A stretch of 64,000 nucleotides of DNA from Myxococcota bacterium (GTDB taxonomy: Bacteria; Myxococcota_A; Polyangia; Nannocystales; Nannocystaceae): NCBI GenBank assembly GCA_039028615.1, contig JBCCHT010000031.1:1-64000 (forward strand). Direction: 5' to 3'. Position 1 is the stretch's first letter; the number at the start of each line of letters is the position of its first letter. The notes under the pieces were generated by a model. The model had not been told where the DNA came from. It made no database searches and saw only the letters and a list, made by a program, of their open reading frames with translations. Positions 33,219 through 49,897 of the stretch are shown in pieces. Both the position numbers and the translations under genes were made by a program.

Positions 33219-33638
33219 ATGGACCCGGAAACCAACCACGGAGGCGAAGCCTCGACCAGTGGCGACGACACGTCTGCAATCGCAGCCGTGCCCGTCGAGC
33301 CGACGCCGCGCGACGAATCCTCTCCTGCGGAGGTTTCGCCAGCAGCTGCCGTGGAGGCGCCGCAGCCCGTCGTGGCCGCACCAGCCCCGGCCAAGAAGAA
33401 GAAGTCACGTACGCGGCCGAAGGCGGGGACGCATCCCAACAACGTCCGCAAGCTTCGCCAAGGCGCGATGATGAGCAAGGCCGAGCTTTCGCGGCGGGCG
33501 GGGGTCAGTCCCCTGACCATCGATCGCGTCGAAGCCGGGTGCCCGTGTCGTATGGACACGAAGCGCAAGATTCTCGAGGCACTCGGCTTGGAGCCTTCGG
33601 CGGCCAAGCAAGTGTTCCCCGATCTCGAAACTCCCTAG
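33219..33638 (+). CDS. XRE-family helix-turn-helix protein upstream of pilM
   Basis: NNVRKLR...MMSKAELSRRAGVSPLTIDRVEAG..CRMDTKRKI..ALG, with an acidic/Pro-rich N-terminal extension. Confidence 0.85.
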   Translation: MDPETNHGGEASTSGDDTSAIAAVPVEPTPRDESSPAEVSPAAAVEAPQPVVAAPAPAKKKKSRTRPKAGTHPNNVRKLRQGAMMSKAELSRRAGVSPLTIDRVEAGCPCRMDTKRKILEALGLEPSAAKQVFPDLETP

Positions 33639-33719: not shown

Positions 33720-34784
33720 ATGGCCAAGCAGTGCATCGGCCTGGACATTGGGTCGAGCGCGATCAAGCTCGTGCAGCTCAAGATCGGGCGGCGCGGCATC
33801 TCGCTCCTGAACTTCGGCATCGAACCGGTACCCCCGCAGTCGATTGTCGACGGCGCCGTGATGAACCACAGCGCGGTCGTCGACGCGATTCGGAACCTGA
33901 CCCGGCGGATTCACCTTCGCGGCAAGGGCATGGCGCTGGCGATCTCCGGTAACGCGGTGATCATCAAGCGCCTCACCATCCCCGCGATGGACGGCCCCTC
34001 GCTCGAAGAGCAGATGGAATGGGAGGTTCGGCAGAACATCCCGTTTTCTCGCGAGGATGTCGTGGTCGACTACGAGGTCCTGGTGCAGCAGACCCCGCAG
34101 GGCCAGATGGAGGTCCTGCTCGTGGCTGCCAAGCGAGACCTGGTCGGCCAGTACAACCAGGTCGTCCGCGATGCGGGTTTTTCACCCACCGTGGTCGACA
34201 CCGCGGCCTTCGCTCTGCAGAACGCAGTCGAGGGCGGCATCGGCTACGCCCCGGGCGAGACGGTGGCCATCATCAACGTGGGGGCGTCGTACTCCACGCT
34301 CAGCATCGTCACCAACGGGATGCCTTCGTTCACCCGCGACATCGCGGCCGGGGGCAATACCTACACGCAGGCGATCCAGCAGCGCTTGGCGGTGAGCACC
34401 GACGGGGCCGAGGCCTATAAGGTCGGCGGCGCGACGGCTGCGGCCGGGGCTGCGGCCGACGTGGTGCCGCAAGAGGTCCACCGCATCCTGGCCCAGGTCT
34501 CCGAGCAGGTGGCCGAGCAGGTCCAGCGCTCGCTCGACTTCTACATCAACGATGCGGTCGACACGCAGCTGTCTCGCATCTACCTGGCCGGAGGATCGTC
34601 GCTGGTGCCCCAGCTGCCCAAGGCGATCCAGGATCGCTCGCGGATCCCGGTCGAGATTCTCGATCCCTTTGCCCGCGCTCAAGTCGACGGTCGTCGCTTC
34701 GACGTCGAGTACCTGCGGGCGAACGCGCCAGTGGCCGCCATCGCATTTGGTCTGGCCCTGCGCCGCCCAGGAGATTCGGCATGA
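33720..34784 (+). CDS. pilM: Type IV pilus assembly protein PilM
   Basis: IGLDIGSSAIK, LLVAAK, IYLAGG, AFGLALR; first gene of the MNOPQ block. Confidence 0.96.
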   Translation: MAKQCIGLDIGSSAIKLVQLKIGRRGISLLNFGIEPVPPQSIVDGAVMNHSAVVDAIRNLTRRIHLRGKGMALAISGNAVIIKRLTIPAMDGPSLEEQMEWEVRQNIPFSREDVVVDYEVLVQQTPQGQMEVLLVAAKRDLVGQYNQVVRDAGFSPTVVDTAAFALQNAVEGGIGYAPGETVAIINVGASYSTLSIVTNGMPSFTRDIAAGGNTYTQAIQQRLAVSTDGAEAYKVGGATAAAGAAADVVPQEVHRILAQVSEQVAEQVQRSLDFYINDAVDTQLSRIYLAGGSSLVPQLPKAIQDRSRIPVEILDPFARAQVDGRRFDVEYLRANAPVAAIAFGLALRRPGDSA

Positions 34785-35470
34785 TTCGCATCAACCTGCT
34801 GCCCACCAAGAAGAAGGCCGCGCGCGGCGGTGCTCGTCGTGCCAGCGGCGGGGAGGGCAGCGCCAACGCCGGTCAGCTGTGGGTGTTCGGCTGGCTCATC
34901 GGCTGGCTCCTGATCGGTGGCGCCGGCTACTGGTTGCTGACCATGGAAGAAGACGCGGCCGCCGCGATGCGCGAGCAGGCCGCGGCCAAGAACCACGCCG
35001 CCGAGAAGATCAAAAACGACATCGACGAAGAGGGCCTCGAGGCGAGCAAGAAGGAGCTCGAGATGCAGCAGGCCATCCGGGCGAAGGTCGCGACCAAGCG
35101 CCGCACGCCGGTCTACGTGATGTACGAGCTGGCGTCGATCCTCACCGACGACAAGGACGGGGGCGGTGCCGACGAGGACAAGGAGAAGCTTCGTCAGCTC
35201 GAGAAGTCCGACCCGCGCGCCCGGCCCAACCCGCTCTGGGACCCCACGGGCCTGTGGCTGACCAAGGTCGAGGAAGAAGGCGGCTCCCTGGTCATCGAGG
35301 GCGGAGCCCGCGACGCGACCGACCTGTCGGAGTTCACCCGTCGCCTGCGGGTCAGTGCCCGCTTCGGCAAGGTCTCCCACCCCAACTTCGAGCGGGTCGG
35401 AACCCGGAGCGACGAAGACGAGCAACACCTCACCTGGGCGCTCAACGTAGCCGTGCGGCGGTGGGATTGA
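34781..35470 (+). CDS. pilN: Type IV pilus assembly protein PilN
   Basis: MIRINLLP motif, TM helix, coiled coil; ATGA overlap with pilM. Confidence 0.92.
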   Translation: MIRINLLPTKKKAARGGARRASGGEGSANAGQLWVFGWLIGWLLIGGAGYWLLTMEEDAAAAMREQAAAKNHAAEKIKNDIDEEGLEASKKELEMQQAIRAKVATKRRTPVYVMYELASILTDDKDGGGADEDKEKLRQLEKSDPRARPNPLWDPTGLWLTKVEEEGGSLVIEGGARDATDLSEFTRRLRVSARFGKVSHPNFERVGTRSDEDEQHLTWALNVAVRRWD

Positions 35471-35479
35471 GAGGCGAGT

Positions 35480-36136
35480 ATGGCGTCAGCGTTCGATAGC
35501 ATCGAAAAGATGCCCGTGTGGCAGAGGCTGGTCGTATGGCTCCTCTTTGCCGTCGTCATCGCGGCCGTCTGGTACTACATCTTCTATCTCGACGCGGTGA
35601 CGGCTCGAGAAGGGGCCGAGCAGAGCCTCGCCAAGGCCAAGACCGAGCTGGTCCGGCTCGAGGAGAAGAAGGCCAACCACCTCGAGGAGCTGCGCAAGCA
35701 CGAGGAGCGCAAGGCCGCTCTCAAGGCCGAGCGCACGGAGCTGTCCACCAGCTCCGCCACGGTGGAGAACCTCATGCAGACCTTCCAGCAGAAGGCCCGC
35801 CAGGTGGGGCTTTCCTTCGACAGCTGGAAGAACGAGGGCGAGCAGCGCCAGGACGTCTACGCCCGCCTGCCCGTGCTGGTCACCGCGCGCGGTACCTGGG
35901 CCCAGACCGGCGAGTTCTTCCGGCAGCTGTCCGAGCTCAAGCAGACGGTCAGCATCGAGAACATCCGGCTGAACGTGAAGGCCAACCGCAGCGAGGCCGA
36001 GCAGGTCGAGAACCCCGTGCTGGATCTGGAGTTCGAGGCGGCGACCTACCGCGCGCTGACCGAACAAGAACGTAGTGCGCCGAGCAACGGCCGGGCCAAG
36101 CCGTCGCGCCGTAAGGGAGCGAAGAAGAGAAAATGA
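35480..36136 (+). CDS. pilO: Type IV pilus assembly protein PilO
   Basis: TM helix, coiled coil, YARLPV....G.W...G.FF..LS; position in the operon. Confidence 0.9.
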   Translation: MASAFDSIEKMPVWQRLVVWLLFAVVIAAVWYYIFYLDAVTAREGAEQSLAKAKTELVRLEEKKANHLEELRKHEERKAALKAERTELSTSSATVENLMQTFQQKARQVGLSFDSWKNEGEQRQDVYARLPVLVTARGTWAQTGEFFRQLSELKQTVSIENIRLNVKANRSEAEQVENPVLDLEFEAATYRALTEQERSAPSNGRAKPSRRKGAKKRK

Positions 36137-36759
36137 GCACTTCGCACTCGAATTCCCGCCCCCGATGGCTGGGCCTCGGCGTCTCGGTGCTGGCGTTGGC
36201 GTTGTCCGGGCCCGCCTGTGGCGACGACGAGCTGCCCGCGACCGCCCAGCGCGGAGCTCCGGGCGGCGGCAAGAAAAAGGGCAAGAAGAAGGCCGGCAGC
36301 CGCCGCACCGGGAAGGGTGCTGCCGCCGGCGACGGGCTGCTCGACGAAGAAGTCGAGGACCCCGGGGTCAAGCGGCCTCCGCCGCTGCTCGACGCGACGT
36401 CGTTCGCGAAGTTTCGCGACCCCTTCCAGGGCTTCGTGGCGGCCGAGCCCGTCGAGCCCGAGCCCGATCCGATCCGAGCCGAGCGCGAGGTCGAGATGCG
36501 TCAGTACTCGTTCGAGGACTTGAAGCTGATCGGGATCACCAGCACTCGGCGATCCGGGGCGAGCCCCCGGGCGCTGTTCGTGGCCAATGACGGGATCAGC
36601 GGGTCCATCAGACAAGGCCAATTCTTCTCGAGCGCCGAAGTTTTGCTTGTGGCGGTCAATCGGGATTATGTCGAGATCGAGGTCGTCGACGAAGAGCTCT
36701 CGGCCAGCCTCGGCATGGAACGTGGCGAGCGCCGCGCGCTGTACCTGCGGAACGACTAA
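36133..36759 (+). CDS. pilP: Type IV pilus lipoprotein PilP
   Basis: Lipobox-like GPAC; RDPF; Y...DLKLIGI.....RAL; position in the operon. Confidence 0.88.
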   Translation: MSTSHSNSRPRWLGLGVSVLALALSGPACGDDELPATAQRGAPGGGKKKGKKKAGSRRTGKGAAAGDGLLDEEVEDPGVKRPPPLLDATSFAKFRDPFQGFVAAEPVEPEPDPIRAEREVEMRQYSFEDLKLIGITSTRRSGASPRALFVANDGISGSIRQGQFFSSAEVLLVAVNRDYVEIEVVDEELSASLGMERGERRALYLRND

Positions 36760-36795: not shown

Positions 36796-39700
36796 ATGAG
36801 CCACACCATGTCGACGCCCCACTCGATCCTGCAATGCTTGGCGGCGCCTCTGGCTCTGGTGGTGCTCACCCAGGCGCCCACCGAGGCCAACGCGACCGCG
36901 CTGCCGGGCGGCACCCTGCTGCCGCTACTGGCGGCCAGTCCTCCCACCAAGGCCGCGGAGACCAACCGCATCGATGGCCTGAGCGTCGAGGAACTCGACG
37001 ACGGCACCACCGTGCTGCGCGTCACGGGCAGCCGCAAGCCGACCTTCAACGTCTATCGACTCTCCTCGCCCGAGCGCCTCGTGGTGGACATCGCGGGGAG
37101 CGAGCCGGGCAAGGTGGTGCCCCACGTGCCCCTGGATACCTGGGCCTGCGGTCGGGTGACCGTGGACGGGGTTTCCGAGCGCGATGCCTCTTTGGTTCGC
37201 CTGGTCGTCGAGCTCAAGCGGGACGCCAGCTACATCGTGCTGCCCAAGGGCGACGAGCTGGTCATCACCGTGACCCCGCGCCAGGTGGCCCCCGAGGCGT
37301 ACTTCGCCCGCAAGAGCGCCAACGAGCGCCGGGCGGACATCGAGAAGAGCAACCGCGATGCCAAGGCCCTGCAGGCCGAAGCGCGGGCGCTGAGCTCCCA
37401 CGCGCACAAGCAGGCGAAGGTCGCCGATCGCAAGGTGGCCGAGGCCGAGAGCCGGGCCGATGCGGCGCGGCAGGCCGAGGTGCGAGCCAAGGCGGCCGAG
37501 CGCCGAGCGACCGATCTCGAGGGGCTGGCACGCAAGACCCTGGCTGACGCCAAGTCGCGCAAGGTGAAGCTGCGTCGCGAGCTGCGTCAGGCCGAGGACG
37601 CGCGATCCAAGGCCGAAGAGGCCCGGGCCGCGGCCGAGTCCCAGCGCCGTGCGGCCGAGTCCGCCCTGGTACTCGCGCGTCGTGATCTCGAGGCCGAGCG
37701 TAGCGAGCTGAAGGCTGCACGTGGCGAGGTCGAGGCCGCCCGGGGTGAGGTCGAGGCCGAGCTGGCGAAGGCGCGAACCAAGACCGAGCGGGCCGAGCAG
37801 AACGCGGCCAAGCTCGTGGAGCAGGCCAAGGTCGAGCTGGCGCAGGCACGAAGCTCCGCCGAGGCGGCCAACCGCAAGGCCAAGGCCGAGCTGGCGAAGG
37901 CCGAAAAGGACGCCGCCCGGGCAGCGAAGGCGGCTCGGCGCGCCGACGCGGCGGCCAAGCAGAAGCTCGATGAAGCCGCGGCCAAGGCAGACAGGCAGCT
38001 GCAGCGGGCGCGGGCCGACGTGGCGAAGTCCGAAGCGGCGGTGGCCAGCAAGCTCGCCGCCGCCCAGAAGGCCGAGAAGCGGGCCGAACTCCTGTTGATG
38101 GAGGCGCGGGCCAAGGCGACCCACGAGGCCGAGCGCACGATGGCGCACGCCCGGAAGGAAGCCGAGCGCGAGGCCAAGAAGAAGCTCGCCGCAGCCGAGA
38201 AGGCCGAGGCCGATGCCCGGCGCAAGGCGGCGGCTCTGCTCGCCAGCGCCGAAGCCGAGGCCCAGGCGAAGATCGACGCCGCGACCAAGGCCGCGCGTCG
38301 CAAGGCACAAAAGCGCCTGGCGCAGGCCGAGGCGGAGGCCGAGCGACGCCTGGCCGAAGCCAAGAAGAAGGCGCAGACCCACGCGGTGGCCAAGGCCGAG
38401 CGCGAGCTCGGTGAGCTGCGCAAGAAGGCGGAAGGCGAGGTCGCCCGCGAAGTGGCCCGCGCCAAGACCAAGGCCGAGCGCGAGGCGAGTTCCGATCTCG
38501 CGCAGGCGCGCGTGCGGGCCGAGAAGGTCGAAGCGCGGGCGCAGGCCAAGCTCACCGCCGCCGAAGCCACGCTGGCCAAGGCCGAGGCGGATGCCAGCGC
38601 CAAGAAAAAGAGCGCGGCCGCTCTCGAAGGCCGAGCCCGGGATGCCCTGGCGCGAGCCGAGCGAGCGCTGTCCCAGGCCAAGTCCGAGCGCGATGCCGCA
38701 GCCGCGGCTCGTCGCGAAGCCGACGCCCGACTCGCGGCCACGGAACGCCGCGTGCGAAAGGCCAAGCGTCGGGGCAAGGCCAGCGCCGAGCTCGAGCGCT
38801 CGCTGGCGGCGGCCAAGAAGGCCTCCGCGCAGGCGCAGGGCCGGCTGACGTCGGTCCAGCGGGACATCAAGAAACTCAGCGGTGACCGCGATGCGCTCGA
38901 GCGCACGCTGGCCCACCAGCGCAAGGCCAGCAAGGCCCTCGCGAGCAAGATCGAGGCTCGCAGCCAAGAACTCGAGCGCCTCGAGCACAAAGTCGCCAAG
39001 GCCCGCAAGGCGGGGCAGGGCGGTCAGGATCGCCTTCGTCGCGAGCAGAAGGCACTGGCCAGCGAGGGCGCCTCGCTGCGCAAGCGCAACGCTGCGGCCA
39101 AGGCCGAGCTCGATCGAGCCGAGGCCGAGCTGGTCGCCCTCCGCAAGTCGATCACGCGGGAGCAGAACAAGCTCAGCGACGCCGAGCAGGCGGTCGAGCA
39201 AGCGCAGGAGAAGCTCGAGTCTCGCGTGGCCAAGCGCGAAGCCTCGGCGGGCGCGGCTGCGCCGGCCAAGGTCGCCCCGAAGGCGTCCAATCCCCCGCCG
39301 GGCGACGGCGCGTTCATCCGCGACGTTCGCTTCGAGGACGACGGCACCGAGTCGCGCGTCATCGTCGAGCTCGAGGGCCCCGTGCGCTTCCAGGGCAAGA
39401 CGCTCACGCCCGACATCCAGCTGCTGGCCCTCGAAGGCGCCCGCATCGACTCTCGGCTCGAGCGCAGCCTCGACGCCCGGGCCTACGGCGGTCCGGTGCA
39501 GCGCATCACGTCGTTCTCCGAGGACGGCGGAGCCAAGGTCATCGTCGCCACCGCGGGGAATACCAAGCCTCGCATCGAGCAGGGCGATGGCGTGCTCGTG
39601 TGGCACTTCCCCCACGGGCGTGAGGCAGCCCGGCCACCCGCCCACGAGGTGGCGAGCCTGCCCGGCACCAAGGTCGGGGGTTACGCCGCGGCCGTGCCTC

Positions 39701-41106
39701 CGGTCGCCGCGGCTCGTACCGCCGCCATGGCTCCCGCGAGCTCCTCGAGCACCCTCGGCCAGTCGCGCTCCGGCAGCAGCTCTTCGGCCCCGGTCCGAGG
39801 CACGCGCTGGCGAGGCGAACGCATCGACATCGAGCTCCAGGACGCGCCGATCAAGGACGTCTTGCTGCTGTTCTCCGACATCGGCCGCGTGAACATCATC
39901 GCGGGCACGGGCGTCGAGGGCAGCGTCACCATGAAGCTGACCGCGGTCCCCTGGGACCAGGCGCTCGACATCATCCTGCGCTCGCTGAACCTGGGCATGG
40001 TGCGCGAGGGCAACGTCATCCGCGTGGCGACCTCCGAGGCGCTCGAGACCGAGCGGCGCGAGGCCATCGAGCGGGCCAACGCTCGGGTCCAGCTCAAGCC
40101 GCTCCAGACCCGCTTGGTGTCGGTGTCCTACGCCACCGCCGACGAGATGGTGCCCAAGGTGCAGAGCGTGCTCTCGCCGCGTGGCTCGGTGACCCCCGAC
40201 GCGCGGACGAACAAGCTCATCATCATGGACGTGGCCGAGAACATCGCGCTCGCCGAGCAGCTGGTCTCGAGCCTCGACACCCAGACGCCGCAGATCCTCA
40301 TCGAGGCGCGGATCGTCGAGGCGCGGACCAACTTCCAGCGTCAGCTCGGCATCCAGTGGGGCTTCGACTTCACCGCGAGCCCGGGCACGGGTAACCCCAC
40401 CGGTCTGCTGTTCCCGAACTCGGCCGGCATCGGTGGTGGTGCGACGGGTACTCCCGTCGACTCGCGTGGTCTGGTGCTCCCGGCCGCCGCCGCGAACCCG
40501 AACTACGTGGTCGACCTGCCCGCGCCGGTCGGTACCGGGGCTGGTGGTGCGCTGGGCTTCTCGTTCGGCAGCATCAGCGGCAACCTCAATACCAACCTCC
40601 GCCTGTCGCAGGCCGAGGAGACTGGTGAGGTCCGCATCATCAGCTCGCCCAAGATCGTCGCCCTCGACAACATCGAGGCGCAGATCGAAGACGGCGTCCA
40701 GATCCCGATCTCTCAGGTCAGCGCGCAGGGCGTCAACACTCGGTTCGTCAATGCGTCGCTGTCCCTCCGCGTCACGCCGCACGTGACCAACGAGGGCGCG
40801 GTGCTGCTCGATGTCCAGGTGCAGAAGAACGAGGCGGACTTCGTCAACACGGGTGCTCGGGGCGACCCCACCATCTTGACCAAGCAGGCGCAGACGCGAA
40901 TGCTGGTCAACGACAGCGACACCGCGGTGATCGGCGGCATCTACTCTCGGAACAAGGCCGTCAACTTCACCAAGGTTCCCTGGCTCGCCGACATCCCGCT
41001 CATCGGCTGGTTCTTCAAGAACAAGAACGAAGCGGACACGCGGTCCGAGGTTCTCATCTTCCTCACTCCGAAGATCGTCAACCGCGCCAGCTCCATCGGC
41101 GGCTGA
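36796..41106 (+). CDS. pilQ: Type IV pilus secretin PilQ (1436 aa) with two AMIN-like domains separated by a ~645-aa coiled coil
   Basis: AMIN LSSPERLVVDI; GERIDIELQDAPIKDVL; VPWDQALDIIL; QILIEARIVEA; KVPWLADIPLIGWFFK; LIFLTPKIV. Confidence 0.95.
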   Translation: MSHTMSTPHSILQCLAAPLALVVLTQAPTEANATALPGGTLLPLLAASPPTKAAETNRIDGLSVEELDDGTTVLRVTGSRKPTFNVYRLSSPERLVVDIAGSEPGKVVPHVPLDTWACGRVTVDGVSERDASLVRLVVELKRDASYIVLPKGDELVITVTPRQVAPEAYFARKSANERRADIEKSNRDAKALQAEARALSSHAHKQAKVADRKVAEAESRADAARQAEVRAKAAERRATDLEGLARKTLADAKSRKVKLRRELRQAEDARSKAEEARAAAESQRRAAESALVLARRDLEAERSELKAARGEVEAARGEVEAELAKARTKTERAEQNAAKLVEQAKVELAQARSSAEAANRKAKAELAKAEKDAARAAKAARRADAAAKQKLDEAAAKADRQLQRARADVAKSEAAVASKLAAAQKAEKRAELLLMEARAKATHEAERTMAHARKEAEREAKKKLAAAEKAEADARRKAAALLASAEAEAQAKIDAATKAARRKAQKRLAQAEAEAERRLAEAKKKAQTHAVAKAERELGELRKKAEGEVAREVARAKTKAEREASSDLAQARVRAEKVEARAQAKLTAAEATLAKAEADASAKKKSAAALEGRARDALARAERALSQAKSERDAAAAARREADARLAATERRVRKAKRRGKASAELERSLAAAKKASAQAQGRLTSVQRDIKKLSGDRDALERTLAHQRKASKALASKIEARSQELERLEHKVAKARKAGQGGQDRLRREQKALASEGASLRKRNAAAKAELDRAEAELVALRKSITREQNKLSDAEQAVEQAQEKLESRVAKREASAGAAAPAKVAPKASNPPPGDGAFIRDVRFEDDGTESRVIVELEGPVRFQGKTLTPDIQLLALEGARIDSRLERSLDARAYGGPVQRITSFSEDGGAKVIVATAGNTKPRIEQGDGVLVWHFPHGREAARPPAHEVASLPGTKVGGYAAAVPPVAAARTAAMAPASSSSTLGQSRSGSSSSAPVRGTRWRGERIDIELQDAPIKDVLLLFSDIGRVNIIAGTGVEGSVTMKLTAVPWDQALDIILRSLNLGMVREGNVIRVATSEALETERREAIERANARVQLKPLQTRLVSVSYATADEMVPKVQSVLSPRGSVTPDARTNKLIIMDVAENIALAEQLVSSLDTQTPQILIEARIVEARTNFQRQLGIQWGFDFTASPGTGNPTGLLFPNSAGIGGGATGTPVDSRGLVLPAAAANPNYVVDLPAPVGTGAGGALGFSFGSISGNLNTNLRLSQAEETGEVRIISSPKIVALDNIEAQIEDGVQIPISQVSAQGVNTRFVNASLSLRVTPHVTNEGAVLLDVQVQKNEADFVNTGARGDPTILTKQAQTRMLVNDSDTAVIGGIYSRNKAVNFTKVPWLADIPLIGWFFKNKNEADTRSEVLIFLTPKIVNRASSIGG

Positions 41107-41322: not shown

Positions 41323-41910
41323 ATGTCGGCGCAGGCTTGGGGGGTGCAGCGGCCGCTGTTTTTGACGGGCATGATGGGCTGCGGCAAGACGACCGTCGGC
41401 CGCGTGCTCGCCCATGACCATGAGCGCACCGTCGTCGACCTCGACGAGCGGATCGAGCGGCTCTTTGGTCGTACCGTCGCCGAGCTGTTCGGGGCCGGCG
41501 AAGCGAGCTTTCGCGAGCACGAACACCAAGCGTTGCGCTCGCTGCTGGCCGAGCCGGGCTTCGGCGGCCAGGGCACGGTGGTCACCTGCGGGGGCGGAAC
41601 CGTACTCGACCGTCGCAACCGCGACGCGATGGACGCCGTGGGCACTCGGGTGTACCTCGAGGTCGGGGTCGACGAACTCGTGCGACGCCTGCTGCCCACC
41701 GTCGAGGCCGACCCCGACGCCAGACCTTTATTGAAAGGTGAGCCGGCTCGGGTACGCGCCCGCCTCGGAGACTTGCTCGCGGCTCGTCGTTCGCTCTATC
41801 GAGCGGGCTCCATCGTGGTCGATGCCGAGGCCGATCCCGTGTCCGTGGCGGAACGCATCGTGGCGGCGCTGGACGGCGTCGCCCAGCTCCGAGACAGCGA
41901 GGCCGTATGA
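41323..41910 (+). CDS. aroK: Shikimate kinase
   Basis: GMMGCGKTTVG, GEASFRE.E, GGGTV, RPLL. Confidence 0.92.
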   Translation: MSAQAWGVQRPLFLTGMMGCGKTTVGRVLAHDHERTVVDLDERIERLFGRTVAELFGAGEASFREHEHQALRSLLAEPGFGGQGTVVTCGGGTVLDRRNRDAMDAVGTRVYLEVGVDELVRRLLPTVEADPDARPLLKGEPARVRARLGDLLAARRSLYRAGSIVVDAEADPVSVAERIVAALDGVAQLRDSEAV

Positions 41911-43019
41911 ACACAAAGCCCCTGGTTTTGGACGTCCGGGTCCCCTCCGAAGACCTCAGCTATCACGTACGGGTGGGGGACGGGCTGCTGTCCCGCCTCG
42001 GGGCCGAGCTCGCTCGCGGGCGAGAGCCGGGCCGCGTCGCGCTGATCTCCGACACCAACGTCCTGCCTTTGTATGGCCCGAGGGTCCGGCAGAGCCTCGA
42101 GGCCGCGGGCTTCTCCGTCATCGAGCAGGTGGTGCAAGCGGGCGAGGCGAGCAAGAACCCCGACGAGCTCGTGCGCCTGGTCGGGGCGCTGGTCGAGCGC
42201 GGCATCGGTCGCCGCGATCTGGTCGTCGCCCTCGGCGGCGGGGTGGTGGGCGACCTGGGCGGCCTGGTGGCGGCGCTGTTCATGCGCGGCATCGATTTCG
42301 TGCAGTGCCCCACCTCGCTTTTGGCCCAGGTCGATGCCTCGGTGGGAGGCAAGGTCGCGGTCGACCTTCCTTCGGGCAAGAACCTGCTGGGCGCGTTTCA
42401 TTTTCCTCGGGCGGTGCTCATCGACACTTCGGTGTTGACCACGCTGCCCGACGACGAGCTCGGTTGCGGCCTCGCCGAGATGCTCAAGCACGGCGCGTTG
42501 TTCTCGGTCGAGCACTTCGATCACTTGGTGGAGCACGCCGATGCCCTCTATGCCCGCGACGCGGCGATCTTGCCTCGCTTGGTCGCCACTTCGGTCGCGC
42601 TCAAGGCGGCCTGTGTCAGCCGCGATCCGCTCGAGATGGCGGCGGCGGGCAAGGGGCGGGTGCTGCTCAACCTCGGTCACACCATCGGCCACGCCATCGA
42701 GTCGGCGTCCGAATTCGGACTTCGTCACGGGGAGGCGGTCGCGCTCGGCCTACGGGCGGCGGCGCGCCTGTCCGAGGCCAAGTCCTTTGCCCCGGCTGGG
42801 CTCGAAGAGCGCATCGTCCAGGCGCTCACGGCTCTCCGCCTTCCCACCGACCTGGACGCGTGGCTCACCGGCGATCGAGCGGACGCGCTGCGGCCCGCGT
42901 TGATGAACGACAAGAAGCGCGCGGGGTCCACGGTGACCTACATCGGGCTGGCCGCGATCGGCGAACCTCGCACCGCTCAGCTGACGCCCGACGAGATCTT
43001 GACTTTGTTGCAGCGCTGA
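41907..43019 (+). CDS. aroB: 3-dehydroquinate synthase
   Basis: GEASK, ALGGGVVGDLGG, PTSLLAQVDASVGGK, KNLLGAF, LNLGHTIGHAIE. Confidence 0.96.
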   Translation: MNTKPLVLDVRVPSEDLSYHVRVGDGLLSRLGAELARGREPGRVALISDTNVLPLYGPRVRQSLEAAGFSVIEQVVQAGEASKNPDELVRLVGALVERGIGRRDLVVALGGGVVGDLGGLVAALFMRGIDFVQCPTSLLAQVDASVGGKVAVDLPSGKNLLGAFHFPRAVLIDTSVLTTLPDDELGCGLAEMLKHGALFSVEHFDHLVEHADALYARDAAILPRLVATSVALKAACVSRDPLEMAAAGKGRVLLNLGHTIGHAIESASEFGLRHGEAVALGLRAAARLSEAKSFAPAGLEERIVQALTALRLPTDLDAWLTGDRADALRPALMNDKKRAGSTVTYIGLAAIGEPRTAQLTPDEILTLLQR

Positions 43020-44604: not shown

Positions 44605-45084
44605 ATGGCCGGCGAATTCATGGCTGAGTCCATGCCCGCAGTGTTGGTGCTCCACGGCCCCAACCTCAATCTCCTCGGCCAGCGCGAGCCGGAGCACTAC
44701 GGTCGGCAGACCTTGGCTCAGCTCGACGCATCGCTGGTCGAGCGTGGTCGACAGCTCGGCTTGGCCGTGCGCTGCGAGCAAGCCAATGGCGAAGGGGCGC
44801 TCATCGACCAGCTACACGAAGCCGGTCGAACCTGCGTGGGAGTGGTCATCAATCCCGGTGGGTACACCCACACTTCGGTGGCCATCGCCGATGCCCTTCG
44901 TGCGATCGCGATACCCGCGATCGAGGTTCACCTTTCCAACATCTTTGCGCGGGATCCTCTGCGGCATCGCTCCCTGACCGGGGCGGCATGCCAGGGGGTG
45001 ATCATGGGCCTCGGCCCGTCGTCGTACCATCTCGCGTTGCACCATCTCGCCCAGGGACTCGAGTCCGCGGGCGAGCAGTCCTGA
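44605..45084 (+). CDS. aroQ: Type II 3-dehydroquinate dehydratase
   Basis: HGPNLNLLGQREPEHYG, INPGGYTHTSVAIADA, EVHLSNI. Confidence 0.96.
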   Translation: MAGEFMAESMPAVLVLHGPNLNLLGQREPEHYGRQTLAQLDASLVERGRQLGLAVRCEQANGEGALIDQLHEAGRTCVGVVINPGGYTHTSVAIADALRAIAIPAIEVHLSNIFARDPLRHRSLTGAACQGVIMGLGPSSYHLALHHLAQGLESAGEQS

Positions 45085-45128
45085 CGCTCCTCTTTCTCCA
45101 ACGCACACCCCGATTTCGCGGAGCTTTC

Positions 45129-45629
45129 ATGTCCAAGACCCGTGACCCGAACCTGCCGGACCTCGACTACATTCGCGAGCTGGCCAAGGTCTTCAAGCGC
45201 TACGAACTCGACGAGATCGAGATCGAGACCGGTGAGCAGCGCGTGTTGTTGCGTCGCAGCGACACCCCCGCTCCGGTGGTTGCCGTGCCGACGCCCGTCG
45301 CGGCTCCGGCCCCCGCCGCCGTGGCCGCTCCGGCCGCCCCGGCTCCCGCCGCCGCTGCTCCTGCTGCCAAGCCGCCGGCCGAGCCCGTCGGCGAGTTCAT
45401 CACCTCACCCTTCGTCGGCACCTTCTACCGCGCCGCGCGTCCCGACACCCCACACTTCGTGGAGGTCGGCAGCACGGTCGAGCCGGGCGCCACGGTGTGC
45501 ATCGTCGAGGCGATGAAGCTCTTCAACGAGATCGAGGCCGAAGAGGCCTATCGCATCGAAGAGTGCCTGGTCGAGAACGCGGAAGCCGTCGAGTTCGGCA
45601 CCAAGCTGTTCCGGGTAACCAAGCTGTGA
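45129..45629 (+). CDS. accB: Acetyl-CoA carboxylase biotin carboxyl carrier protein
   Basis: Ala/Pro linker, SPFVGTFYR, EAMK biotinylation motif. Confidence 0.95.
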   Translation: MSKTRDPNLPDLDYIRELAKVFKRYELDEIEIETGEQRVLLRRSDTPAPVVAVPTPVAAPAPAAVAAPAAPAPAAAAPAAKPPAEPVGEFITSPFVGTFYRAARPDTPHFVEVGSTVEPGATVCIVEAMKLFNEIEAEEAYRIEECLVENAEAVEFGTKLFRVTKL

Positions 45630-47002
45630 CCCAAGAGATTCGCAAAGTTCTCGTGGCCAATCGCGGCGAGATCGCCTTGCGGGTGATCCGAGCGTGCCGC
45701 GAGATGGGCATCCGTACGGTAGCCATCTACTCGACCGTCGACGAGGCGGCCCTGCACGTGCGCTTCGCCGATGAAGCGCTGTGCGTCGGGCCGGGTTCGG
45801 CCACCGAGAGCTACCTCAACATCCGCAACCTGATCGCAGCCGCCGAGTTGGCGGGGGCCGACGCGGTGCACCCCGGCTACGGGTTCCTGGCCGAGCGCCC
45901 GGACTTCGCCGCCGTGTGCCACAAGTGTGGGCTCAACTTCATCGGCCCGTCGCCGGAGCACATGCGGCTCATGGGCGACAAGGTGCAGGCCCGCGAGCGC
46001 ATGCAGGAGGCCGGTGTGCCGGTCCTGCCCGGCACCGGCGTGCTCCAGAGCCCGCAAGAGGCCATCGAGGCCGCGGAGCGCATCGGTCTTCCCGTCATCC
46101 TGAAGGCTTCGGCCGGCGGTGGTGGGCGCGGCATGAAGATCATCCGCGACATGGACAAGCTCGCGGGGATGGTCGAGACGGCCCAGGCCGAGGCGCTCGC
46201 CGCCTTCGGTGACGGCTCCGTCTACGTCGAGCGCTACGTCGAGAGCCCGCGCCACATCGAGGTGCAGGTCGTCGCCGATCAGCACGGCAACTGCATCGAC
46301 CTGCTCGAGCGCGAGTGCTCGATCCAGCGCCGTCACCAGAAGGTGATCGAGGAAGCCCCCGCCGCCTGCCTCCCCGAGGAGGTCGGCCAGCGGATCCGCG
46401 CGGCCGCGGTCACCGCAGCCAAGGCGATCGGCTACCACTCGGTCGGCACCGTCGAGTTCCTGCTCGACGGCGACGACTTCTACTTCATGGAGATGAACAC
46501 CCGGATCCAGGTCGAGCACTGCGTGACCGAGATGATCACGGGCGTCGACCTGGTCCAGGAACAAATCCGGTTGGCTACCGGAGAACCCCTGGGCCACCTC
46601 GATCGCGAACATCGCGCACGGGGCCATGCCATCGAGTGCCGGATCAACGCGGAAGATCCCATCAAGTTCACGCCGCAGCCCGGCGTGATCACCGAGGTGA
46701 ACTTCCCCGGTGGGTACGGAGTTCGGGTCGATAGCCACGTCTACGGCGGCTATCGGATCTCCCCACACTACGACTCGATGATCGCCAAGCTCGTCGTCCA
46801 TGCCCCGACACGGGATCAGGCCGTAGCGCGGATGAAGCGCGCTTTGGGGGAGCTCGTGGTGGAGGGGATCCGCACCAACACCGCGCTGCACCGCTGGATC
46901 ATGCAGCACCCCATCTTCCTAAGCGGCCGCTACGACACGCACTTTTTGGAGCAGAACCTGGATCCGGAAGCGATTCTCGCGGTCGCGGAGGATCAGAACT
47001 AA
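45626..47002 (+). CDS. accC: Acetyl-CoA carboxylase biotin carboxylase subunit
   Basis: GTG start overlapping the accB stop; ANRGEIALR, HPGYGFL, GGGGRGM, FMEMNTRIQVEH. Confidence 0.96.
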   Translation: MTQEIRKVLVANRGEIALRVIRACREMGIRTVAIYSTVDEAALHVRFADEALCVGPGSATESYLNIRNLIAAAELAGADAVHPGYGFLAERPDFAAVCHKCGLNFIGPSPEHMRLMGDKVQARERMQEAGVPVLPGTGVLQSPQEAIEAAERIGLPVILKASAGGGGRGMKIIRDMDKLAGMVETAQAEALAAFGDGSVYVERYVESPRHIEVQVVADQHGNCIDLLERECSIQRRHQKVIEEAPAACLPEEVGQRIRAAAVTAAKAIGYHSVGTVEFLLDGDDFYFMEMNTRIQVEHCVTEMITGVDLVQEQIRLATGEPLGHLDREHRARGHAIECRINAEDPIKFTPQPGVITEVNFPGGYGVRVDSHVYGGYRISPHYDSMIAKLVVHAPTRDQAVARMKRALGELVVEGIRTNTALHRWIMQHPIFLSGRYDTHFLEQNLDPEAILAVAEDQN

Positions 47003-47020: not shown

Positions 47021-49897
47021 GTGGCCTTCAGCAAGCCAAAGGCGCACGAGCGGGCGGAGCGTTATGCCGCCAAGGGGCAGCACGACAAGGCCGCCCGCGA
47101 GTACCAGACGATCGTCGAGCACGATCCGAAGGATATTCGCGCGTGGCTCATGTGGGCCGACTGTCTCGTGCGCTGTGGCGATCGACCGGGCGCGGTCGAG
47201 CGCTACGAGCGAGTGGCCACCTATTACGTCGAGGCCAAAGAGGACAACAAGGCGCTCGCCGTCTATCGCCAGGTGCTCAACCTGGCGCCGCAGCGGCTCG
47301 ACGTGCAGACCAAAGTGGCCGCGCTGAACCTTCGGCTCGGCCACACCCAAGACGCGATCGCGCTGTACGAGCGGATCGGTCACGCGCAGATGCAGCTCGG
47401 TCGCATGGGCGAGGCGTTGGCGACCTACGAGATCGTCGCCGACATCGATCCCACCGCGGTCGCGAGGCGCCTGCGCTTGGCCGAGTTGTTCTCCCGAGAA
47501 AAACGCACCAAGGAGGCGGTCCGCGCCTTCGAAATGGCCGGCGACGAGCTGCACGACGCGGGGCGCATGGCCGACTACGTGCGGGTGGCCGAGCGCCTGC
47601 TCTTTCACGACGAGAGCCAGGTCGACGTCATCCGCAAGCTGTCGCGCGCCTACCTCGAGCTGGGGGATCCCCGGCGCGCGCTGATGAAGCTCAACGGGCT
47701 GCTTCGAACCAACTCGCGGGACGAAGAGGGCATCGAGCTGCTCGCCGAGACCTTCATGAGCCTGGGCAAGCCCGAGAAGGCGCTCAGCGCTCTCGAAGAG
47801 CTGGCGCGGGCGCTCAAGGCCAAGGGCCCCGACGCCAAGGCCGACACCATTCGAATCCTGCGGCGAGGCCTGCAGTGGCGACCCGCCCACGTGGAGTTCC
47901 GCGAGGCGCTGACCGAGCTCGAAGGGCGTCGCCGTAGCGGTCCGCAGCCCACGGTGCCGGCGGCCGCTGCCGCGGCCGAAGAGTCCGACGAGATCGATCT
48001 CGACACCATTGACGAAGGCGACCTCGTCGAGCTCGACGACGACGATCTGGTCATCGAAGAGGGCAGCGATGCCCGGGCCGCCGACCAGGTCTCCGCCGTC
48101 ACGCCGAGCGAGCCGCCCACCAAGGTGGCCCTGCCCGAGGCGGGCAGCTCCGCCCCCGGCACGCGACGCACCACCGAGATGGAGGCCGTGCCCTCCGTCG
48201 AGTCCTCGCTGACGCAGAGCGTGCTGTCCGAGGTCGCGGGCGATTCCCCCGATGTCGAGAGCCTCACCGACTTCGACAAGATCCTGTTCGAGGCCCGCGT
48301 CTACATCAAGTACCGGCTCTTCGAGCACTCGCTCGACCACATCCTCACCGCGCTGGGGCAGCAGCCCATGCACATCGGTGCGCTCAGCCTGCAGGCGCGG
48401 GCGCTGACCGAGCTGCAGCGCGGCGAAGAAGCGGCCGACGTCCACGTCAAGGTCGCCGAGCTGGTCGCGCCCAACGATCCCAAGCTGGCGCGCGAGCACC
48501 TGTCGGCCGCGACGGCGCTGGTCGAGGGCCACGCCGGAGCCGAGGCTCTGGCGGCTCAGGTCGCCCCCCGCGATTCGGTGGCCGTGCCCGTGCCCGTCGC
48601 CGAGCACGACGAGCACGGCGACAGCGGAGCCTTCGACCTGCTCACCGACAGCTACGCGGGCCAGAGCGCCACGGGGATGCCGGTCGAGAGCAGCACCTCG
48701 GGGCCCATTCCCATCTCCGTCGAGGACGAGCCGGCCGAGCCCGCCGCCAACCTCATCGACGCGCACGAGCATTCCGACGAGGACGTCGAGGAGTCGACGC
48801 AGCCCTTCACGCCCGTCGATCCGTCGCTGCTCGAGGAAGAGCCCGTCCCGGCGGAGCCAGAGCCAGAGCCGGAGCCGGCGCAGACCGGCCGCACGCTCAC
48901 CCCGTACGGCAATGTGCCCGAGGAGGCACCGCGGACCGGTCGCACGCTCGTGCAGATCCCGGCCATGGGCGACGACGGCGTGGAGGTGCCCGAAGGCGGG
49001 GAGACGCCATCGCTCGACTTCGGGACCGGAGCGGACGACGACCTCGAGCTCGATCTTCCGCCCGACATGGCCGAGGCGGAGGCCCCGGCCGTCGCCGAAG
49101 AGCCCGCGGCCGCCGAGGCCGAGCCGGCGGTGGCCCAGGCCCCGGTCGCGGCTGAAGCACCCGCGGGGGGCTGGCCCGACATCTCCGACGATCTGGCCGA
49201 GGTGCGCTTCTATCTCGACCAGGGTCTCGACGAGGACGCCGAGGCGGCGCTCGAAGACCTCGATCAGCGCTACCCGGGGCACCCCGAGATCCGGGCCCTC
49301 CGGGGCGGTCCCGCCGAGGAAGAGGAAGCACCCGCCGTGCTGCTCGAGGCCGAGGCAGCCGAGCCCCTGTTCGATGTCGACGAGCCCAGCGCGGCGACGC
49401 CTCTGCTCAGCTTCGACGAGGACGAGGACGAGGACGACTACCTCAGCTCGATCTTCGCCGAGCCCAGCGAGCGGGAGAACAAGCCCAGTGCGGCGGCCAC
49501 CTCCGATGGCGGCGGTGCGGGGGCCAACCTCGCCGAGGGCCAGTCGGTGGATGCCGCCACCGCGTTCGACCTGGGCGTGGCGTACCGAGAGATGGGCCTG
49601 GTCGATGCGGCCATCGCTCAATTCGAAGGGGCCGCTGGCGATCCGCAGTGGCGAGCCCGCGCGCTCACCATGTTGGGCGCCTTGCGAGTTCATCAGGGCC
49701 AGACCGAAGTCGCCATCGCCAACCTGCAAGAAGCGGTCGGCCTGGCGAGCACCGGACCGGAGTCTTCCGAGGCCGCCTACGAGCTCGCGGTGCTCTACGA
49801 AAAACTGGGAGACACGTCGTCGGCAGTGCAACAGCTGCAGAGCGTGACCCCCGGGTATCGCGACCGCGACCAGCGCTTGGCTGCGCTGGGGGGTTGA
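47021..49897 (+). CDS. sgmX: TPR protein, probable SgmX orthologue (polar activator of type IV pili)
   Basis: N-terminal TPR array, long acidic linker, C-terminal TPRs (FDLGVAYREMGL...YRD). Directly follows accC, as in M. xanthus from memory. Confidence 0.7.
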   Translation: MAFSKPKAHERAERYAAKGQHDKAAREYQTIVEHDPKDIRAWLMWADCLVRCGDRPGAVERYERVATYYVEAKEDNKALAVYRQVLNLAPQRLDVQTKVAALNLRLGHTQDAIALYERIGHAQMQLGRMGEALATYEIVADIDPTAVARRLRLAELFSREKRTKEAVRAFEMAGDELHDAGRMADYVRVAERLLFHDESQVDVIRKLSRAYLELGDPRRALMKLNGLLRTNSRDEEGIELLAETFMSLGKPEKALSALEELARALKAKGPDAKADTIRILRRGLQWRPAHVEFREALTELEGRRRSGPQPTVPAAAAAAEESDEIDLDTIDEGDLVELDDDDLVIEEGSDARAADQVSAVTPSEPPTKVALPEAGSSAPGTRRTTEMEAVPSVESSLTQSVLSEVAGDSPDVESLTDFDKILFEARVYIKYRLFEHSLDHILTALGQQPMHIGALSLQARALTELQRGEEAADVHVKVAELVAPNDPKLAREHLSAATALVEGHAGAEALAAQVAPRDSVAVPVPVAEHDEHGDSGAFDLLTDSYAGQSATGMPVESSTSGPIPISVEDEPAEPAANLIDAHEHSDEDVEESTQPFTPVDPSLLEEEPVPAEPEPEPEPAQTGRTLTPYGNVPEEAPRTGRTLVQIPAMGDDGVEVPEGGETPSLDFGTGADDDLELDLPPDMAEAEAPAVAEEPAAAEAEPAVAQAPVAAEAPAGGWPDISDDLAEVRFYLDQGLDEDAEAALEDLDQRYPGHPEIRALRGGPAEEEEAPAVLLEAEAAEPLFDVDEPSAATPLLSFDEDEDEDDYLSSIFAEPSERENKPSAAATSDGGGAGANLAEGQSVDAATAFDLGVAYREMGLVDAAIAQFEGAAGDPQWRARALTMLGALRVHQGQTEVAIANLQEAVGLASTGPESSEAAYELAVLYEKLGDTSSAVQQLQSVTPGYRDRDQRLAALGG

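Follow-up and report, generated by a model that had tools for sequence, protein, structure and literature searches.

A predicted coiled-coil rod of about 650 residues between the AMIN domains of PilQ, the secretin of type IVa pili, in Myxococcota

The pilQ gene and the reality of its insert

The pilQ locus analyzed here raises the question of why a type IVa pilus secretin that is otherwise ordinary carries a 650-residue segment between AMIN1 and the last AMIN domain, and what such a segment could do. In the window, by which we mean the whole 64,000-nucleotide stretch of Nannocystaceae DNA that was analyzed, pilM, pilN, pilO and pilP directly precede pilQ, the last gene of an intact pilMNOPQ operon. 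This operon and a TIGR02515 score of 401.7 bits (NCBIfam cut-off 284.35) bear out the intact PilQ of 1436 aa named by a first-pass annotation of the same DNA. Pfam places N0, Secretin_N and secretin domains at the C-terminus of the protein, and AMIN domains, also recovered by comparison with the Myxococcus xanthus PilQ structure 3jc8, at its N-terminus. The gene may instead start at Met5 (36808); the database copy has 1432 aa. The features are as follows.

33720..34784 (+): pilM, 354 aa (Pfam PilM_2, E 7.7e-69)
34781..35470 (+): pilN, 229 aa, of normal stalk length (Pfam PilN, E 7.7e-08; stalk comparison)
35480..36136 (+): pilO, 218 aa, of normal stalk length (Pfam PilO, E 2.5e-17; stalk comparison)
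36133..36759 (+): pilP, 208 aa (Pfam PilP, E 0.0047, below cut-off; operon position)
36796..41106 (+): pilQ, 1436 aa (ORF call, Pfam, NCBIfam)
36796..36894 (+): likely Sec signal peptide, residues 1-33, with an A-x-A end (by eye)
36958..37278 (+): AMIN1, about residues 55-161 (3jc8 residues 31-198, i-Evalue 4e-10; Pfam AMIN in 2 stretches)
37273..37320 (+): AMIN1/rod junction motif, residues 160-175, conserved in the window's family (65-row alignment)
37306..39261 (+): rod, residues 171-822 (residue content, periodicity, indel and charge statistics)
37712..37759 (+): tandem repeat of 21 bp in 2.3 copies, duplicating one heptad
38101..38562 (+): middle of the rod, residues 436-589, period 3.64-3.76 (hendecad- or pentadecad-like), length-variable in relatives
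38629..39240 (+): C-terminal part of the rod, residues 612-815, heptad period, richer in Leu and best conserved
39301..39615 (+): AMIN2, residues 836-940 (Pfam AMIN 843-926; 3jc8 residues 314-440)
39805..41103 (+): C-terminal part of pilQ (Pfam; TIGR02515 above cut-off)

Pro is absent from residues 167-822 of PilQ, and Pro, Phe, Trp and Tyr are all absent from 171-822, which confirms the earlier reading of residues ~172-815 as free of these four amino acids. The insert had also been placed between two AMIN domains, and its flanks indeed match the first and third AMIN regions of M. xanthus PilQ. The most frequent amino acids in residues 172-815 are Ala (29%), Arg (13.5%), Glu (12.7%), Lys (11.6%) and Leu (8.1%), with Arg+Glu+Lys making up 38%, and the net charge of the rod is about +55. 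No other stop-to-stop frame of the genome has as long a stretch of this kind (656 residues; the runner-up has 467). In the junction motif, P107, P112 and Y115 are invariant and F116 is near-invariant (numbering of alignment A2, 65 rows, window's family). No second gene copy with the AMIN/rod profiles was found in the window's own genome. The same genome contains seven PF00437 matches above cut-off, candidates for the motor ATPases PilB and PilT, and three ORFs with a class III signal-like pattern, as generally known for pilins, which are pilin candidates.

The insert is real and no artefact. An assembly chimera or a mis-called frame could be suspected from the GC-rich, low-complexity region with its long shadow ORFs on the opposite strand, and from the fact that no single contig of the possible source run spans pilQ. 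Logan contigs of that run, which are not independent of the assembly, tile the gene with 0 differences; weak joints with sides of 21-26 letters were taken as chance. The first-pass annotation had called for a check of the two AMIN/rod junctions; each lies within a single contig (36000-37977 and 37948-39852), but no piece crosses the whole gene. GC3 in the rod is 0.87, resembling the 0.90-0.92 of the remaining gene, and GC at the codon positions is alike. The same architecture moreover recurs in other genomes. A whole-length protein search gave 410 matches, the best 120 of which were examined (candidates of 789-2513 aa, favoring long forms); with the query added, 118 of 121 proteins have both AMIN domains with 344-960 residues between them, a count that includes the query's database copy, and AMIN1 is absent from the other three among the matches listed. 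It was also found at 69 of 100 genome loci picked by hand (see below). Because the architecture is conserved, we regard a chimera or mis-called frame as already refuted.

Several genes near the operon deserve mention. A small HTH_3 gene (33219-33638, +) lies directly upstream of pilM and may regulate the pil operon. Downstream of pilQ follow genes for shikimate kinase and 3-dehydroquinate synthase (41323-43019, +) and, as judged by eye, ORFs like dehydroquinase, biotin carrier and biotin carboxylase (44605-47002, +). A 958-aa TPR protein is encoded 6 kb downstream of pilQ (47021-49897, +); its N-terminal 280 residues match SgmX, which activates type IV pili (NF052243; E 3.5e-59, a score well short of the cut-off set for whole proteins).

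Predicted coiled-coil character and chain orientation

The first-pass annotation took the insert for a long coiled-coil-like segment, and sequence statistics bear this out: the reading of the rod as a coiled coil is well supported. In the window protein, residues 656-809 have a heptad period of 3.50-3.54 with a best power of 6.2-9.6, above the 99th percentile of shuffled sequences, whereas the N-terminal rod windows of this protein alone fall inside the shuffle range. The best period over 436-589 is 3.64-3.76 (3.70-3.76 over 480-589), with a power of 10.5 at 502-567 against a shuffle 99th percentile of 6.1. When 101 non-redundant rods were pooled, the period was ~3.5 at all five positions tested, and the 3.7-period middle was confined to the 39 closest proteins. 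The hendecad phrasing noticed earlier in the central part thus holds locally, in windows spanning 436-589, but not as the general pattern. Positions a and d are mostly Leu, Ala and Val and positions e and g mostly charged, partly by construction of the register.

The way in which the rods vary points in the same direction. In the 52 of 75 disjoint close pairs that passed the identity filter, indels of up to 36 aa kept phase in 99 of 131 cases inside the rod versus 32 of 137 outside it, a contrast inflated to some degree by the fact that aligning periodic sequence itself favors in-phase gaps; the commonest rod indel length is 7. Rod dN/dS was below 1 in all nine pairs analyzed, at 0.06-0.17 in the three closest and at 0.18-0.76 in the six more distant ones, where several values are near those of flexible linkers and synonymous sites are near saturation. 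Conserved Gly breaks occur at Gly660 and Gly740-743 in the C-terminal third, and gains and losses in this third are modular, of 60-105 residues; together these could represent hinges or local hairpins. Three rod pieces searched against Pfam gave generic coiled-coil matches only, below cut-off. In the ESM Atlas the protein has no model; the whole protein matches ordinary PilQ clusters and the rod alone gave no usable match.

A parallel orientation of the chains is moderately supported by three tests taken together, of which the charge pattern gives an uneven signal. The pair g to e' is the inter-chain charge pair of parallel coils, and it alone among the seven i to i+5 pairs shows an excess of opposite charges (z +5.0 to +7.7 at three thresholds, compared with -4.0 to +0.5 for the six other pairs and -1.6 after shuffling). 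Pooling 822 heptad segments from 107 non-redundant rods gave 756 opposite versus 467 same charges (z +5.8). By subset, most of the signal comes from 19 rods outside the window's class (z +6.8); it is weak for 29 rods of the window's family (+2.1) and for 59 others (+1.6), and absent from the window protein alone (-0.9; 10 segments).

An antiparallel arrangement, in which each subunit folds back into an SMC-like hairpin (~48 nm here, with AMIN1 beside AMIN2) or forms several local hairpins, appears unlikely. It would suit the Ala-rich d position (29%), which is typical of tight antiparallel coils, the symmetric 3.5-3.7-3.5 period layout in close relatives, and the conserved Gly turns and modular changes of the C-terminal third. 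The window's own pair, whose arms changed by similar amounts (-115 and -105 residues), is the one closest to matched. The central turn and matched arm lengths of SMC-like hairpins were nevertheless not observed. Gly and Pro are not in excess at the rod midpoint, the weakest helix windows or breaks lie mostly at 70-90% of the length, and in 24 of 44 close pairs one arm differed in length by 14 residues or more, with 0 of the 24 matched within 7 residues by the other arm. The g-e' pairing suits parallel chains, and no anti-diagonal emerged when covariation in 109 family sequences was scored by mutual information with APC, in an analysis of low power where relatedness dominates the signal.

Distribution and history of the rod in Myxococcota

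The first-pass annotation had implied that such an insert is rare and had suggested that PilQ lengths be compared across Myxococcota. This comparison gave rods of 161-1,894 residues in many families, and the rod appears to be the ancestral state of a large clade, lost several times, rather than a rarity. Taking all sets together, a continuous helical core was identified in 225 of 243 inserts (median 568 residues). Cultured carriers are Plesiocystis pacifica SIR-1, with a 373-aa insert, and Enhygromyxa salina, with 443-472 aa; several MAGs labelled Nannocystaceae are also among the carriers. To escape the length bias of whole-length searches, the secretin part alone was used as query across genomes, and matched 173 of the 201 genomes searched in the window's class and 127 of the 151 searched in the phylum. 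Loci were then chosen by hand to cover families and lengths. In the window's class, 45 of 60 loci and 18 of 25 families carry the rod, three families being mixed and seven without it at the loci taken; outside the class, 24 of 40 loci do, in 10 families. The longest rod, with ~1,900 helical residues, lies in a 2,668-residue frame of genome G324, and most sampled rods of family f37 are 1,330-1,800 residues long. Among 80 genome loci, Pro-free stretches of more than 131 residues before N0 were confined to records that are Myxococcota-labelled or deltaproteobacterial.

When 1.84 billion representatives were searched with profiles, 138 further proteins came to light, 53 of them with the order AMIN-rod-AMIN-secretin and three with AMIN-rod-AMIN-AMIN-secretin. 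AMIN plus rod only, sought as a stand-alone donor gene, was seen in 30 of the 138; these are short and not distinguishable from fragments. Four proteins (P0122, P0125, P0126 and P0252) consist of 4-8 AMIN domains and lack a secretin, stopping directly behind the final AMIN; in P0122, two helical segments lie among five AMINs. Such proteins might be fragments, or N-termini of PilQ that have become separate.

Other genomes depart from the common picture in different ways. The secretin query found no pilQ match in seven genomes from three genera of the window's family (G006, G008, G021, G022, G023, G102 and G207; 82-95% complete), in 10 of 12 f11 genomes and in 10 of 10 f50 genomes, where loss of type IVa pili is possible. 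In the PilQ frames at loci L122, L123, L169 and L147, the profiles detected no AMIN and the N-terminal region is short and Pro/Ala-rich; these may be secretins without a wall anchor of their own. At four loci (L116, L117, L224 and L035), the pilQ sequence is distributed over more than one reading frame, and every one of the breaks falls within the rod; as three of the four assemblies consist of 5-20 contigs, indel errors are likely.

In a quick IQ-TREE analysis of the secretin part (92 rows, midpoint root; 20 near-redundant or frameshifted loci left out), all 53 rod-bearing rows grouped in a single clade of 67 rows (SH-aLRT 96), and the 25 rows outside it are free of the rod. The 14 rod-less rows inside the clade form at least five nested groups. 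An earlier 72-row tree agrees. We read this pattern as one ancient gain followed by repeated loss. Rows outside the rod clade have two or three AMINs, and three proteins (P0193, P0211 and P0242) retain AMIN-rod-AMIN-AMIN; because these keep the rod together with three AMINs, the rod was likely inserted after AMIN1 and the middle AMIN lost separately. PilN is a second marker of the rod clade: it is ~25 residues longer after the membrane helix, rod-loss members included (~170 residues versus 140-155 in most outside rows).

Possible functions of the rod

Taken at ~0.15 nm per residue, a straight rod would measure ~96 nm here, close to the ~95 nm first estimated, and 24-280 nm over the clade. The periplasm is tens of nm wide. 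PilN and PilO reach from the inner membrane to the periplasmic rings of the secretin, and their offsets from membrane helix to core (in most rows about -52 to -58 and -32 to -44, respectively) do not grow from 0 to 1,690 rod residues. With such constant stalks, bridging of a wider periplasm is unlikely and the rod must lie sideways or bend. A vertical strut through a widened periplasm, a form of the TolA-like struts also suggested by the first-pass annotation, is therefore highly improbable. In its favor, the composition of the rod resembles that of TolA domain II, and an AMIN domain fused to a TolA-related charged helical region is described for deltaproteobacteria (PMC2572700). Beside the unchanged stalks, it is opposed by lengths of 96-280 nm, well beyond the tens of nm of periplasm widths, by an N-terminus that offers no inner-membrane anchor except a signal peptide that by eye looks cleavable, and by the heptad phase, which disfavors a lone helix. 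Neither the protein nor the three rod pieces matched the TolA family, which combines an inner-membrane anchor, a helical domain II and a TolA C-terminal domain and is encoded in a tol-pal locus; the locus here is pilMNOPQ.

Two side observations concern the same genes. In the family with the longest rods (f37; L212-L216), the part that follows the membrane helix is longer than in the window: 263-339 residues instead of ~175 for PilN, and 212-216 instead of ~180 for PilO. The added length lies C-terminal of the core. At L217, L219, L220, L221 and L247, no pilM, pilN, pilO or pilP match was seen upstream of pilQ in the stretches examined; in f44 and f41 the pil operon may have been dispersed or may have diverged too far for a match.

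The lateral tether, the other half of the first suggestion, is also the reading we prefer, with a probability of about one half: the rods would bundle with those of neighboring subunits into lateral spokes that serve as a long-reach peptidoglycan tether. Here the rod fold and oligomer state rest on sequence statistics, the sideways course of the spokes on geometry, and wall binding on AMIN domains studied elsewhere. The rods of two or three neighboring subunits would bundle in parallel, so that the secretin ring would bear several spokes, each tipped by a cluster of AMIN1 domains; since the vertical parts of the machine are not longer, the spokes are placed sideways in the periplasm. The predicted role of the AMIN1 clusters is to hold on to peptidoglycan at distances of up to ~100 nm from the pore, while AMIN2 would retain a local anchor beside N0. 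Bundling would give AMIN1 avidity and pre-group the subunits, so that septal or polar wall could be captured more widely and strongly while the machine assembles, and after assembly the spokes could spread the retraction load. AMIN domains are reported to attach to peptidoglycan and to direct PilQ to sites of division (PMC5285504; PMC10653833), and in Vibrio a single AMIN is described as forming a ring next to the secretin in situ (PMC12632996). The site itself tolerates bulk: one AMIN is reported to be sufficient in M. xanthus (PMC10653833) and mCherry between the AMINs of Pseudomonas aeruginosa PilQ is reported to be functional (PMC5285504). Against a tether stand these reports and the loss of the rod in several nested lineages that still have pilMNOPQ.

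These losses, at least five in number, also suit a less likely explanation, namely that the rod is a tolerated spacer, a helical linker of little function that varies by duplication under selection only against breaking or aggregating. A length range of more than tenfold, tandem duplications within the rod, dN/dS of 0.42-0.76 in four of nine pairs, the accepted mCherry and the polymorphic repeats reported at the same site in Neisseria (PMC3441751) would all be accommodated. It is harder to reconcile with retention of the rod in 28 sampled families and more than one class, where each subunit of a ring that has 12 copies in 3jc8 bears the expense of as many as 1,900 added residues, and the phase-keeping indels, the g-e' signal and the low dN/dS of the closest pairs argue for selection on a defined structure. 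The rods of different rings might alternatively pair or interdigitate in a polar periplasmic mesh that spaces the machines, a lattice or ruler that we consider improbable. Parallel self-pairing requires no particular partner ring, lengths are lineage-specific and stable within families such as f37, and spokes of 100-280 nm would presumably reach adjacent machines; the nearest partners are nevertheless subunits of the same ring, and between close relatives the length varies by anything from tens of residues to more than 100, which is loose for a ruler. A broader proposal, that PilQ acts as a scaffold whose spokes of 25-280 nm tie the wall and neighboring rings into a polar lattice, with length setting the spacing or bracing of machines, is likewise speculative and unlikely.

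Among the known systems nearest to the window protein, M. xanthus PilQ (901 aa, PDB 3jc8/3jc9) shares with it the pilMNOPQ operon and the N0, N3 and secretin domains; M. xanthus PilQ is described as having three AMINs on flexible linkers (PMC10653833), whereas the window PilQ has the rod and lacks the middle AMIN. Neisseria PilQ is alike in having a polymorphic basic low-complexity insert (SBR) in the same place, between B1 and B2, which is reported to affect piliation and DNA binding (PMC3441751; PMC2884949). The SBR consists of short octamer repeats, unlike the rod, which is 20-200 times one such unit and has heptad phase. FimV of P. aeruginosa has a periplasmic coiled coil beside its peptidoglycan-binding domain. 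That domain is reported to aid polar localization and PilQ multimers (PMC5285504); FimV is a separate inner-membrane protein with LysM, and the likeness is one of functional analogy, with homology not claimed. The AMIN followed by a TolA-related charged alpha-helical segment in deltaproteobacteria (architecture viii of de Souza et al. 2008, PMC2572700) is entered there apart from PilQ, unlike the rod described here.

The same paper includes the Plesiocystis PilQ, with the rod unremarked in the text and supplement searched, and the word 'coiled' is absent from the searched text and supplement of a 2018 survey of myxobacterial pili (PMC6060248). In the literature searched, which leaves most subscription journals outside, we found no published description of a coiled-coil rod in PilQ, and this architecture is apparently not in print. 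M. xanthus, with its short AMIN linkers, underlies almost all knowledge of myxobacterial pili, and in its sister branch most sampled families carry a rod whose length would be several times the width of the periplasm. If the rod is a lateral tether, it would represent another solution for positioning and bracing a machine that generates force. The natural series of rod lengths offers a means of testing how anchor reach affects polar capture, machine spacing and the bearing of load. The rod occurs in two cultured genera, and the design could be grafted into M. xanthus PilQ.

Two further roles were considered and rejected. DNA binding was dismissed as a conserved trait, the net charge ranging from -41 to +244 across rods. 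Replacement of the pilotin was dismissed as a general rule, as Tgl-like genes persist in the longest-rod families: matches with E <= 1e-25, none above the curated cut-off, were obtained in the rod-bearing families f37 (12/12), f34 (15/15) and f44 (9/10). In the window's own genome the Tgl-like matches are weak (best 1e-16). The search for TsaP gave 24 LysM matches, none of which was assigned to it.
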